From: an uncultured Nitrososphaerota archaeon | GTDB lineage: Archaea; Thermoproteota; EX4484-205; JAAOZO01 | NCBI GenBank assembly: GCA_964408285.1 | Contig: CAYOYV010000003.1 | Span: forward strand, 125,067-189,066 | Direction: 5' to 3' | DNA: 64,000 nucleotides | Shown: positions 30,930 through 34,543 of the stretch, piece after piece | How the letters are laid out: the number at the start of each line of letters is the position of its first letter | Numbering within the stretch: the stretch's first letter is position 1 | Program-made: the position numbers and the translations under genes | Notes under the pieces: generated by a model | Seen by the model: the letters and a program-made list of their open reading frames with translations, nothing else | The model's database searches: none | Told to the model about the DNA's origin: nothing

Positions 30930-32290
30930 TCATCCTCGTTCAATGTCTTCTAGGAAGTCGGTCAGTACATCCTCCAGATTCGGAAGGCCGATCTCTTTCA
31001 GCTCATATCTGACATGGACTGCGGCCTTGTTGATCTTGAGCAATCCATTAAGCCTGATGGGAGTTGCGCTCACAACAACGTCTGCTGTTGTGCTATTTAT
31101 CGTTTCTTCTAACTCCTTCATCTGCTGAGGCCCGTATCCCATCGCCGGAAGGACCTTTGTAACATGCGGAAAGCTCTCGAATGTCCTCTTCAGGCTACCG
31201 ACTGCATACTCAATTGGATTCACGATCTCACTCGCCTGGAATTGCCTTGCTGCAAGATATCCTGCCCCGTACGACATGCCTCCATGGGTTATGGTTGGTC
31301 CATCCTCTATGACAAGAGCTCGTTTTCCCCTAATCATCTCAGGCTTCTCGACGTAGATCTCTGAAGATGCTCTGACAATGAGTGCATTCGGGTTTTTGGA
31401 TCGCACGTTGTCCATCACGATGGAGATGCTTCTCTCGCTTGCAGTATTCACTTTGTTGACTATTATTATGTCCGCCATTCTGACGTTAGTCTCGCCAGGG
31501 TGATATTCTATCTCGTCGCCGGGACGCATGGGATCGACTACTGTTATGAGGAGATCCGGCTTGAAGAAGGGGAAATCATTGTTGCCTCCATCCCACACGA
31601 TCACATCTGCTTCCTTCTCAGCCTCTTTCAAGACCATGCTGTAGTCCACGCCAGCAAAAACAACTATTCCTCTCTCGAGATGAGGCTCATATTCCTCTCT
31701 TTCTTCAATCGTGCAACGTGCCCTGTCGAGATCATCGAATCTCTCGAATCTCTGAATTGCTTCTTCCAGGAGATTTCCATATGGCATCGGGTGTCTGACG
31801 ACAACCGGGTTCTTTGCCTTCTTCCGCAATATGTCAACGACCCTCCTTGTGGTCTGACTCTTTCCTGATCCAGTCCTACCCGCGCAAATCGCTATAAGTG
31901 GCTTGCTTGATTTCAGCATCGTATCGTTAGGCCCAAGCAGCATGAAGGACGCCCCTGACGAAAGCACCTCACTGGCCTTGTGCATGACATATTCGTGAGA
32001 TACATCGGAGTATGAAAACACAACAAGATCAACCCTCTGATCTCTTATTGTCTCGGAAAGGTCTTCTTCAGGGATGATCGGTATTTCGTTTGAATAAAGC
32101 AAACCTGCCAATGATCGGGGATATCTCCTATTCTGGATGTTCGGGATCTGGGTCGCCGTGAACGCTACAACTTCATACTGGGAGTTGTCTCTGAAGAAGA
32201 CATTGAAGTTGTGGAATGCGCGGAGTGCAAGAATACTTGCCCTCGATCGCGTCCCGCGGCTCCCATAATGATCACCTTGCGTCTTGCCAG
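30930..32290 (-). CDS. COG2403 P-loop protein (cDPG-synthetase-like, probable arginine synthetase ArcE); spliced from exon 1 32290-32246 and exon 2 32216-30930, 443 aa
   Basis: Exon 1 reads (M)ARRKVIIMGAAGRD and exon 2 reads FHNFNVFFRDN..VVAFTATQIP. Later motifs: RTGSGKSQ, RHPMPYG, TIEEREEYEPH, WDGGNND and EDGPTITHGGM. Confidence 0.88.
32217..32245 (-). other. 29-nt mRNA intron with a bulge-helix-bulge motif
   Basis: The mRNA reads GGA CGCG AU^C GAG G GCAAG UAUU CUUGC A CUC CGCG CA^U UCC. Removal at the carets restores the frame and the conserved motif. Confidence 0.88.
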
Positions 32291-32296
32291 GTCTCA

Positions 32297-32304
32297 TCAC
32301 CTCC
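32297..32304 (-). promoter_or_regulatory. Shine-Dalgarno site
   Basis: GGAGGTGA 6 nt upstream of the CTG at 32290. Confidence 0.65.
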
Positions 32305-32428
32305 GTAATAGTTTAATGAGTTTCTATCCTGCATCCTAGTTCCAGCTATTTATCCTTGAACATTGAAGCTTTCCTTGCCGGTTTCAGTGCAGGCCCGACA
32401 GGAATTCCAGGGACTCCCGCGAATCGCA

Positions 32429-34543
32429 TTACCTAGCAGTTCTTCCTTCAAGCCATTCAGGCCGATATCGGCTCAATGATAAGGAATTCAACGTCACTGT
32501 CATCGAACTCAATGCCATGGCCAGAGCAGAGAAAATGGGACTTAGGAGGACACCAGTCAAAGGGTACAGAACGCCAGCTGCAAGAGGAATCAATGCTACG
32601 TTGTAGACGAAGGCCCAAAATAGGTTCTCCCTAATTTTCCTGGAAATGAGTCTGCTCACGTCAATTGCCAGTGCAACTCCTCGGGGATCGTCGCCGACCA
32701 ATATGATCTGACCTGTCTCCTTCGCTACATCAGTTCCACCTCCCATTGCAATGCCCACGTCCGCTGCCGCTAAGGCGGGCGCATCGTTTATCCCATCACC
32801 GACCATTGCGATGATCCGGTTCTCTGACCTAAGTCCTCTTACAATGTCAATTTTGTCTTGGGGGAGGACCCCGGCGATGACCTCACCTATCCCAAGTTTC
32901 CCAGCTATGGCGTCTGCCACAATCTGGTTATCGCCCGTGAGCATGGCTGTTTCTATGTTTCTGCGAGCCAGTAACTCGACTGCTTCCCGGGAATGGATTT
33001 TCGGCACATCGGCCACAGCAAGGATGCCAATCAAATCACCATCCAATGCAACCAGAAAAGCTGTATTCCCCAGATTCTCTGATTCACTTAGCTTTTTGGC
33101 CATTTCTTGATCCAAGCGCAGTCCCTCTGTCTCGATCAGTCTCTTTGTCCCGACAATGACCTGCCGACCATTCACGACCGAGCGCAATCCTCCCGGCAGA
33201 ACCTTGGTCAGATCTGCGCGATCCGGCTTTATCTCTCTTCGTTTGGCCTCCTCAAGTATCGCCTTTGCGATGGGATGTTCAGAACCGGCCTCTGCAGAGG
33301 CAGAGAATAAGAGAACGTCGAGTTCCCGCATGCCACCACGTGGCAATATTGAGACAACAGAAGGTCTTCCCGTCGTAAGCGTTCCTGTCTTGTCGAACAC
33401 AACCATAGTGACCTTTCTTACTCGTTCTAACTCTTCCCCTCCCTTAATCAGTACCCCAAATTGAGCGGCTCTTGAGAATCCTACGGTCAAAGCAGCTGGG
33501 GTTGCCAAGCCGAGGGCACAGGGGCAAGCTATTATCAGAACCGCAATCGCAGTCGTCAGGGCAAAGCTCAACGGCATCCGACCGAGAAAAAGCCAGATGC
33601 TGAAGGACAGGATCGATGTCAGAACCACAATGGGTACGAATCTGCTCGCTATAGCGTCTGCTAATTTCTGTGCTGGTGATCGAGTGAGAATTGCTTCTTC
33701 TATCAGGCCAGTTATTTGAGAAAGGGTCGAATCCGCTACCGTTCTGGTAGTCCTTATCTTGACAAACCCATTGAGATTCACTGATCCGGCGAAGACTTGG
33801 CTTCCCGGGGATATGTCAACTGGTATCGACTCACCCGTAATAGGCGACATGTCCGCAGATGAGGAACCTTCCATGACTTGTCCATCAACTGGAATCCTCG
33901 ATCCGGGTCTGACAGCTAATGTGTCATCCACTCTGACCTCCTCCACTCTTACCTCCTTCTCTAGGCCATCTTGAACGAGAGTGGCCATGGGTGGCTGAAG
34001 CTCCAGTAATCTTGTCACCGATTCAGAGGCCCGCTGTTTGGTCGAATGCTCTAGGAACCTGCCGAGGAGGATCAGCCCTATTATGAGTGCCGAATCAGCG
34101 AAATAGGTCGGCGGCATCTCGCCCGCTCCTTGCTGGATCATCTGGGGAAAGAACGTTGCAACAACGCTGTAGAAATAGGCCGCGGATGTCCCGATAGCTA
34201 TGAGTGAGTCCATATTCGCTTGCCTAGACCTCAGTGCGTCAAGAAGTCCTCTATAGAATACATAACCAGCCCCAAACTGGATTGGAGTGACTAGAAGAAA
34301 AATGGCTACTCGTGTGAGTTGGGTGTCAGGAGAAATCGCCACAAAATCTGATAGCATAGTCATCGCACCCACCGCCAAGCTGATGATTGACAGATCTCTG
34401 TATCTCCTGATTTCCCTTTCAGGCCTCAGGAACTCGTCGTAGCATGTCCTACTGCAGAAGTAGTAGGTTCTGCCTCTTCTGTCCAGTCTGAATCGGGTCG
34501 TGTTCTCATCCACATACATGCCGCACACTACGTCCCTTGCCAT
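32429..34543 (-). CDS. copA: Cu(I)-exporting P1B-1 ATPase with an N-terminal YHS domain
   Basis: DVVCGM..YYFCS..C, TGES, CPC, DKTGT, SEHP, GDGIND, YN and MALSS motifs. Confidence 0.95.
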   Translation of the reverse strand: MARDVVCGMYVDENTTRFRLDRRGRTYYFCSRTCYDEFLRPEREIRRYRDLSIISLAVGAMTMLSDFVAISPDTQLTRVAIFLLVTPIQFGAGYVFYRGLLDALRSRQANMDSLIAIGTSAAYFYSVVATFFPQMIQQGAGEMPPTYFADSALIIGLILLGRFLEHSTKQRASESVTRLLELQPPMATLVQDGLEKEVRVEEVRVDDTLAVRPGSRIPVDGQVMEGSSSADMSPITGESIPVDISPGSQVFAGSVNLNGFVKIRTTRTVADSTLSQITGLIEEAILTRSPAQKLADAIASRFVPIVVLTSILSFSIWLFLGRMPLSFALTTAIAVLIIACPCALGLATPAALTVGFSRAAQFGVLIKGGEELERVRKVTMVVFDKTGTLTTGRPSVVSILPRGGMRELDVLLFSASAEAGSEHPIAKAILEEAKRREIKPDRADLTKVLPGGLRSVVNGRQVIVGTKRLIETEGLRLDQEMAKKLSESENLGNTAFLVALDGDLIGILAVADVPKIHSREAVELLARRNIETAMLTGDNQIVADAIAGKLGIGEVIAGVLPQDKIDIVRGLRSENRIIAMVGDGINDAPALAAADVGIAMGGGTDVAKETGQIILVGDDPRGVALAIDVSRLISRKIRENLFWAFVYNVALIPLAAGVLYPLTGVLLSPIFSALAMALSSMTVTLNSLSLSRYRPEWLEGRTAR

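Follow-up and report, generated by a model that had tools for sequence, protein, structure and literature searches.

We uncovered a probable bulge-helix-bulge (BHB) mini-intron that interrupts the coding sequence of a conserved gene for a predicted GTPase from an uncultured archaeon of the phylum Thermoproteota. The insert in question is 29 nucleotides (nt) long and lies at 32245-32217 on the minus strand of the 64,000-nt stretch of DNA analyzed here (the window), which comes from a 46-contig draft genome (G000) with an estimated completeness of 94%. A first-pass annotation of the window had proposed that this insert is a coding-region BHB intron and that cuts of the kind made by the splicing endonuclease EndA yield the junction GRD|FHN. 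Our analysis upholds that interpretation with a probability of roughly 0.88, based on the geometry shared by all 61 inserts collected at the same site, the compensatory changes in their paired positions, the disruption of the frame alongside conserved open reading frames (ORFs), and the presence of genes for EndA and for RtcB in the same genome. That cleavage and ligation actually occur is what we infer from these sequence comparisons.

Geometry and conservation of the insert

Both the sequence and the ORF list bear out the earlier description of a 29-nt insert that splits a family motif across two frames. The frame encoding MIIMGAAGRD is that of a 36-amino-acid (aa) ORF (MIIMGAAGRDRGQ…*), and FHNFNVFFRD sits in a different frame, inside a 456-aa ORF (30930-32300, minus strand), which is the one that a gene caller would report and whose first 28 residues (MMRPGKTQGDHYGSRGTRSRASILALRA) result from reading exon 1 and the intron out of frame. 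Deleting the 29 nt (CGAGGGCAAGTATTCTTGCACTCCGCGCA; i.e., C GAG G GCAAG UAUU CUUGC A CUC CGCG CA) joins GGA CGC GAU to UUC CAC and thereby restores GRD|FHN. The coding part of exon 1 (32246-32275, minus strand; GTG ATC ATT ATG GGA GCC GCG GGA CGC GAT) comprises 10 codons for MIIMGAAGRD and contributes the 5′ side of both the outer and the central helix of the predicted motif. Exon 2 (30930-32216, minus strand) begins with TTC CAC AAC TTC AAT GTC TTC TTC AGA GAC and runs from FHNFNVFFRD for 428 codons to the stop. The GTG at 32275, our predicted start codon for the GTPase gene, is the sole in-frame candidate after the upstream TGA stop, with no ATG, GTG or TTG between the two; the residues RKV, which the first-pass annotation had included in the motif, lie upstream of this single available start.

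The whole motif occupies 42 nt (32213-32254, minus strand), and the fold described for it previously is indeed the minimum free energy (MFE) structure of this core, at -15.5 kcal/mol. Its outer helix consists of 3 bp, in which the Gly codon GGA (32252-32254) is paired with UCC (32213-32215) drawn from the codons UUC CAC, with the G-C, G-C and A-U pairs being invariant. It is followed by a central 4-bp helix, formed by an exonic CGCG (32248-32251) and an intronic CGCG (32219-32222). The central helix is flanked by two 3-nt bulges on opposite strands, namely AUC (32245-32247), with the predicted 5′ splice site between 32246 and 32245, and CAU (32216-32218), with the predicted 3′ splice site between 32217 and 32216; the limits of the intron (32217-32245) correspond to cuts after the second base of each bulge. 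The variable portion of the intron (32223-32244, minus strand) is made up of the inner helix GAG/CUC and a 5-bp hairpin, arranged as GAG·G·GCAAG UAUU CUUGC·A·CUC. The same 29-nt intron was picked up independently by our genome-wide motif scan, as C3:157283-157311. No Rfam match was found in 31700-32700 at E-values up to 1, a blank that is to be expected because mRNA BHB introns do not form a curated family. A query for RNA sequencing runs matching this interval returned none.

The first-pass annotation had also suggested aligning the orthologous loci for intron presence and compensatory base changes, and that comparison uncovered same-site inserts that covary in 61 loci. We searched a phylum sample of 401 Thermoproteota genomes, in 153 of which an orthologue is present, and inspected the N-terminal junction in 148 loci from 147 genomes; this count omits two genomes in which the match is partial or starts off-contig (G030 and G221) and four more. 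A second orthologue set comprises the best 80 genome_contigs loci, which are for the most part bacterial. The intronless state is the norm: in 131 of the 148 loci of the phylum sample, G-x-x-G-R/K-D/E runs straight into F-H-N-F-N, and the direct GAAGRD-FHNFN junction is likewise seen in 79 of the best 80 genome_contigs loci. The consensus of the orthologues is …(R/K)V(I/V)I(M/L)GAAGRD joined to FHNFN, and therefore the predicted splice product of the window gene represents the family norm.

An insert is present at the identical codon boundary in 17 of the 147 genomes of the phylum sample. Within the window's own family, it is found in G000, G002 and G004, with G001 and G003 lacking it, and in a separate family (f13) it is present in 14 of the 16 genomes that have the gene, spread over two genera. 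An additional archaeal metagenome-assembled genome (MAG), L041, has a 19-nt insert at the site. Across these 18 genome loci the inserts are 19, 23 (four loci), 24 (two), 25, 26, 27 (three), 29 (three) and 30 nt (three) in length, and all 18 fit a strict hBHBh′ arrangement in an identical register, with the BHB being the MFE structure of the core in 14. The hairpin stems are unrelated between lineages and are nonetheless paired, for example, GCAAG/CUUGC in the window, CCGGC/GCCGG in G002 and GGGCC/GGCCC in G034.

An independent sample of 43 loci came from a metagenome search, for which the pattern required the two exon flanks and allowed any 15-45 nt to separate them. As this pattern set the exon sequence in advance, the outer helix is present in these loci by design; the complement of the exonic CGYG was found at the required distance from the 3′ end in 43 of 43, with 42 showing all 10 tested pairs. 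Pooling the 17 genomes, the MAG and the 43 metagenome contigs gives a set of 61 same-site inserts with 42 distinct cores, the latter with inserts of 19-37 nt. The hBHBh′ geometry is seen in 61 of 61, and the first three inner pairs in 60. Two identical metagenome loci (L271, from 2246 onward, and L274, from 8620 onward) contain a 37-nt BHB intron; their exon 2 has a run of eight Ts in place of the seven in L267, and similarity is lost after …SYPPEL. The extra T could be a sequencing error, a mark of a decaying copy or a sign of a further, larger insertion.

The paired positions covary. We computed covariation on a MAFFT alignment (A1) with the structure described above: 175 of the 176 cells are paired, four pairs have changed on both sides, and the observed covariation score was reached by none of 500 shuffles. 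Shifting the partner by 1-3 columns as a control brings pairing down to 33-58%. Among the 42 distinct cores, just 2 of 462 cells are unpaired, and at the third central pair 18 have C-G and 24 have U-A, without a single mispair. The most telling of the covarying pairs spans the exon-intron boundary: the Arg codon is CGC or CGU, and its synonymous third position faces, correspondingly, a G or an A in the intron; the pairs of the inner helix covary too.

The inserts also have a consistent relationship to the coding frame. The length is not divisible by 3 in 29 of the 42 distinct introns, and the remaining 13 all carry an in-frame stop; the exon 2 ORFs downstream stay open and full length despite the inserts. 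A comparison of the intron-bearing genes of G002 and G004 gave a nonsynonymous divergence (dN) of 0.059 and a synonymous divergence (dS) of ~1.0, i.e., a dN/dS of ~0.06, a value that indicates purifying selection on the ORF downstream of the insert. The codons that form the outer and central helices are equally distinctive: GGA for Gly, CGY for Arg and TTC for Phe occur in all 18 intron-bearing genome loci, as against 45, 26 and 83, respectively, of the 131 intronless loci of the phylum sample. Either the intron is tolerated only where the GGA-CGY-TTC codons exist, or the intron keeps them fixed.

Weighing the alternatives

Several observations weigh against a BHB intron at this site. In a 61-nt context, the BHB (-16.9 kcal/mol) loses by 3.5 kcal/mol to a rival fold (-20.4 kcal/mol); the z-score of the fold is just -1.39, with 17 of 200 shuffled sequences being as stable; and in 4 of the 18 genome loci the BHB lies 0.6-2.2 kcal/mol above the MFE of the core. 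Fold stability by itself carries no significance for the BHB claim. Nor are strict BHBs (Watson-Crick pairs only, 3+4+3 bp, intron of at most 40 nt) enriched in G000, where 103 were counted over 3,642,428 start positions and 103 in the reversed sequence that served as the control. The strict BHB rate is ~3e-5 per position, and a BHB in which both cuts exactly restore a conserved motif lies far beyond chance; the comparison across loci decides the question. The outer helix never varies, being exonic and, in the metagenome set, fixed by the pattern, and hence lends no covariation support; likewise, the sequences are related rather than independent, so that the shuffle statistics overstate their significance. 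Finally, the unspliced RNA could in principle give a 455-aa protein from an out-of-frame ATG at 32297-32295; preceded by a GGAGG (the two lying within 32295-32303, minus strand), this ATG begins the 456-aa frame that extends across the intron.

Taken further, this last point becomes a reading in which translation of the unspliced RNA from that ATG yields a protein whose N-terminus differs, and in which the resemblance of the fold to a BHB is coincidental. The ORF is indeed open through the insert and the GGAGG lies just upstream; it is, however, merely 2-3 nt from the ATG, and the first 28 residues are unlike those of any orthologue and displace the invariant GAAGRD. Moreover, G002 and G004 are without an ATG, GTG or TTG upstream of FHNF in the corresponding frame, a stop closes that frame in the loci with in-frame introns, and an incidental fold would not covary across 42 distinct sequences. 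We regard this reading as very improbable. A little less probable still is translational recoding, whereby ribosomes would frameshift, hop (as they do across a gap of 50 nt in phage T4 gene 60) or read through the insert without any RNA splicing. The insert does sit between two pieces of one ORF and holds a stable hairpin, and there is a precedent for confusion, as cbf5 introns were, according to an excerpt of Yokobori et al. (PMC2738675), initially mistaken by other authors for translational frameshifting. Against recoding stands the fact that the insert lengths of 19-37 nt span all three classes modulo 3, with the in-frame ones containing stops, which means that +1 shifts, -1 shifts or readthrough would be needed depending on the lineage, whereas splicing covers them all. 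Frameshifting or readthrough would also put 6-12 extra residues into an invariant motif. The conserved feature is instead exactly a BHB, with its 3-nt bulges, 4-bp helix and compensatory changes across the exon-intron boundary, and neither a conserved slippery site nor matched take-off and landing codons are seen.

The least probable explanation is damage, whereby the gene would be a pseudogene in decay or the insert an artefact of assembly or sequencing. It is true that the insert breaks the frame, that G000 is a draft genome in 46 contigs, and that in the identical loci L271 and L274 a T-run is one T longer and similarity is lost further on; yet the site is occupied by differing insert sequences in 61 loci of independent assemblies, exon 2 is undamaged, its 428 codons aligning over their whole extent with the orthologues, and dN/dS is ~0.06 between two intron-bearing genes. 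Of a different kind is the idea that the intron is real and serves, through conditional splicing, as a post-transcriptional switch on GTPase production. This would be a refinement of, and is compatible with, the BHB-intron interpretation, and is consistent with the conserved protein not being obtainable from unspliced RNA and with the retention of the intron in all 14 intron-bearing f13 genomes from two genera. On the other hand, the sequence bears no sign of a sensor, and a conserved element for binding a ligand or a protein is made less likely by an inner hairpin that varies freely in its sequence and its length (19-37 nt). The close relatives G001 and G003 manage without the intron, and near-neutral carriage under efficient constitutive splicing explains its persistence equally well; we therefore see a switch as unlikely, though it is the least improbable of the possibilities set beside the BHB-mini-intron interpretation.

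Host gene, splicing machinery and further probable mini-introns

Along its entire length, the exon 2 product shares 57-64% identity with orthologues from both archaea and bacteria. In Pfam it recovers a weak match to the cobW P-loop family (E-value 1.4e-4), with thymidylate kinase and zeta toxin below the cut-offs; a search of NCBIfam yielded nothing meaningful and no equivalog for it; and the protein atlas clusters that contain it are automatically named 'putative GTPase'. The sole solved relative is a cyclic 2,3-diphosphoglycerate synthetase (PDB 9sxb), to which the match is weak and partial (residues 194-308, E-value 8.6e-7). Identity with that synthetase was rejected on account of the match covering residues 194-308 instead of the full length and the lack of an NCBIfam equivalog. 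The host protein is thus best described as a conserved, uncharacterized, predicted P-loop GTPase, and the earlier designation of a 'metabolic gene' goes further than this weak, partial match warrants. Ahead of the out-of-frame ATG lies an AT-rich, TATA-like stretch (32306-32317, minus strand). The usual spacing between a TATA element and the start is ~26 nt, by which transcription might begin near 32286, i.e., downstream of that ATG. The upstream neighbour on the same strand (32429-34543, minus strand) is a 704-aa ORF that by eye resembles heavy-metal P-type ATPases (DKTGT, GDGINDAP and an N-terminal Cys-rich domain).

The genome encodes the machinery that such an intron would require. It has two EndA paralogues, both with N- and C-terminal domains (PF01974 matches at C4:48740-48997 and C8:13446-13700), and an RtcB (PF01139 match at C15:34836-36143). 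The 194-aa EndA paralogue is closest to crenarchaeal EndA chains (2cv8, E-value 2e-45) and contains the motif VDHAPF; the 217-aa one is more divergent and has no His at the matching position, which we tentatively take to be that of a catalytic residue. The pair would fit a heterotetramer with catalytic and structural subunits, a form of the enzyme that has been linked in the literature to introns in mRNA and to non-canonical introns. ARAGORN reported just 21 tRNA genes in G000, with introns predicted in 13 and some doubtful calls, including two 'SeC' genes and one 1514-nt intron; many tRNA genes of this genome are probably interrupted in ways that ARAGORN misses.

In the mechanism that we propose, exon 1 of the pre-mRNA (GGA CGCG AU) would form the hBHBh′ motif by pairing both to CGCG at the 3′ end of the intron and to UCC among the first bases of exon 2. 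The putatively heteromeric splicing endonuclease, with the EndA paralogue on contig 4 as the putative catalytic subunit and that on contig 8 as the putative structural one, would then cut after the second base of each bulge. RtcB would ligate the exons, giving the predicted junction …GGACGCGAT joined to TTCCACAAC…, with the intron probably being circularized as well. The mature mRNA would code for MIIMGAAGRD-FHNFNVFF…, a protein of 438 aa that matches all intronless orthologues. Unspliced RNA, in turn, would give either a 36-aa peptide in the correct frame or, from the upstream out-of-frame ATG, a protein without the conserved glycine-rich N-terminus.

The first-pass annotation had raised the further possibility of genome-wide mRNA introns that are missed by gene callers. 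We recovered three more candidates in two conserved genes of G000, but our motif scans gave no total. The cbf5 gene has a 15-nt in-frame insert with a TGA (C6:39016-39030, plus strand; L236:317-331), which splits the Asp codon of GTL-D-PGVTG. Its exons match the TIGR00425 profile at positions 4-69 and then 71-226, so that nothing but the split Asp codon is absent, and a BHB parsed by hand has an outer helix CGGGA/UCCUG, a central helix CCCU/GGGG, the bulges UGA and AAA, and nearly no inner helix. The gene for aIF5B (IF-2) has two inserts: one of 22 nt at GH|VDHGKT (C6:68725-68746, minus strand; L235:1826-1847), and a 19-nt strict BHB at REAGGI|TQHVGA (C6:68631-68649, minus strand; L235:1732-1750), across which the exon matches to the NF003078 profile continue without a gap (19-44, then 45-597). 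Among 30 loci from relatives, the first aIF5B site is occupied in six genomes of the window's family, G000 included, and the second has BHBs of 17-27 nt that restore GGITQH or GAMTQH in 10 genomes from five families, again including G000. In four aIF5B loci (L249 of G010, L255 of G024, L258 of G009 and L260 of G006), a single TAA or TGA lies inside the match; these stops may be additional interruptions beyond the two N-terminal sites. In all four G000 introns the exon bases flanking the junction form an inverted repeat (GGA…UCC, GGG…CCC, CUA…UGG and CGGGA…UCCUG), and the need for such a repeat limits the sites at which an intron of this kind can exist. We consider the GTPase intron to be probably part of a wider, unrecognized set.

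The genome-wide scans for further cases varied greatly with their stringency. A loose motif-plus-ORF scan gave 4531 candidates against 284 in the control, the real ones being largely artefacts of true ORFs. The strict version gave nine against none, of which inspection left just the GTPase intron and the second aIF5B intron. A relaxed scan gave 54 against 28, and a structure-strict one three against seven. Motif scanning cannot count the mRNA introns of G000; it also misses cases with short exons or multiple introns, such as the first aIF5B intron, and the cbf5 intron with its nearly absent inner helix. Other candidates were rejected on inspection: C11:52816-52878 and C2:160457-160489 would join unrelated adjacent ORFs, the supposed intron at C5:103721-103768 encodes part of an acetylglutamate-kinase-like motif, and that at C9:35818-35839 lies in an ATP-binding cassette (ABC) ATPase gene, the frame upstream of it not being ABC-like.

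In a tree of 114 orthologues of the GTPase, the five genes from the window's family form a single group with a support of 82 in the Shimodaira-Hasegawa-like approximate likelihood ratio test (SH-aLRT), and G034 and L041 are placed elsewhere. Mapping the intron state on the gene tree requires three changes, two of them forced by well-supported branches, and a single gain with simple vertical descent is accordingly not supported. The history is either one of repeated gain at permissive sites or one of ancient origin with many losses. On a balance only slightly better than even, we favor a scenario in which several Thermoproteota lineages hide BHB mini-introns of 15-37 nt in conserved protein genes (aIF5B at two sites, cbf5 and the GTPase), where EndA/RtcB-mediated mRNA splicing would be routine and obligatory and the sites would be limited to short coding inverted repeats (X3-N7-X3′) able to form the outer helix. 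Such confinement would account for the use of one and the same codon boundary by distant families, for which no fewer than 2-3 gains or losses are needed on the gene tree.

Relationship to known protein-spliced introns

The closest known counterpart is the cbf5 pre-mRNA intron of Crenarchaeota, reportedly described by Watanabe in 2002 and Yoshinari in 2006. The open-access literature that we searched holds no report of a BHB intron for either aIF5B or the GTPase family, and cbf5 is the only coding-region case in it. An excerpt of Yokobori et al. 2009 (PMC2738675) presents cbf5 as the only confirmed archaeal pre-mRNA intron, with 'no confirmation… for genes other than cbf5', and mentions unconfirmed predictions in other genes. 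A passage of Schwarz et al. 2020 (PMC7714728) describes a BHB intron in the 5′ untranslated region (UTR) of HVO_1309 of Haloferax volcanii and otherwise treats cbf5 as the sole mRNA case. A 2019 review cites Yoshinari 2006, and a 2025 paper cites all three cbf5 papers.

The GTPase and cbf5 introns have much in common: both are short BHB introns in a coding region, with predicted cuts between the second and third bulge residues, a rule that an excerpt of PMC2738675 gives for cbf5 and that we applied to the GTPase intron. Both are found in hosts with a hetero-oligomeric EndA (a putative one in G000), have a patchy, lineage-specific presence, are mis-annotated by gene callers and have a highly variable interior; lineage-specific loss and mis-annotation of the cbf5 intron are likewise noted in that excerpt. 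They differ in that the GTPase intron is in a different gene, which is not a pseudouridine synthase, and at a different site, and is fully canonical hBHBh′, whereas most cbf5 introns are termed 'unconventional BHB' in the same excerpt. The cbf5 intron is assigned to Desulfurococcales and Sulfolobales, and the GTPase intron occurs in other lineages; furthermore, cbf5 splicing is backed by cDNA and in vitro work, whereas that of the GTPase intron is predicted from sequence comparison. Membership of the GTPase intron in the cbf5-intron family was rejected, given that its host is a predicted GTPase and that the cbf5 gene of G000 has a separate 15-nt insert of its own.

With the archaeal tRNA and rRNA BHB introns, the GTPase intron shares the hBHBh′ arrangement with its 3-nt bulges and 4-bp helix, the presumed processing by EndA and RtcB, and the size of a tRNA mini-intron. 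Unlike in those cases, its helices are made of coding sequence, which constrains the synonymous codons, there is no tRNA body for recognition, and the product is an mRNA whose frame hinges on single-nucleotide accuracy. The HVO_1309 intron, as presented in the passage of PMC7714728, parallels it in that an mRNA, rather than a tRNA or rRNA, is the substrate of the splicing endonuclease; it differs in lying in an untranslated leader where no codons are interrupted, in belonging to a euryarchaeon with a single endA, and in having been tested experimentally. A more distant analogy is offered by HAC1/XBP1 (also mentioned in PMC13149111), where there is likewise a protein-only excision of a short mRNA intron at structured sites, with a change of frame and RtcB-type ligation. 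There, however, the nuclease is Ire1 rather than EndA, with RtcB or Trl1 acting after it, the sites are twin stem-loops, and the system is eukaryotic and stress-regulated; no kinship is implied.

What is new here is a second gene with a textbook BHB intron in its coding region, represented by 42 distinct covarying sequences and with companions in aIF5B and cbf5 of the same genome. In more than 20 years, the open literature has come to hold one coding-region archaeal BHB intron, that of cbf5, and one 5′-UTR case; the protein genes of this archaeal group seem to rely on tRNA-type splicing more than that record suggests. For annotation, this means that gene callers assign an incorrect N-terminus at such loci or report them as truncated genes or pseudogenes, and completeness estimates and pseudogene counts would consequently be biased for these archaea. 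For the evolution of introns, the occupancy of the same site in distant families makes gain versus loss of protein-spliced introns directly testable. For the specificity of the enzyme, these introns would provide natural, minimal mRNA substrates for the heteromeric endonuclease. Moreover, in the coding sequence itself, the predicted RNA structure would place selection on synonymous sites.

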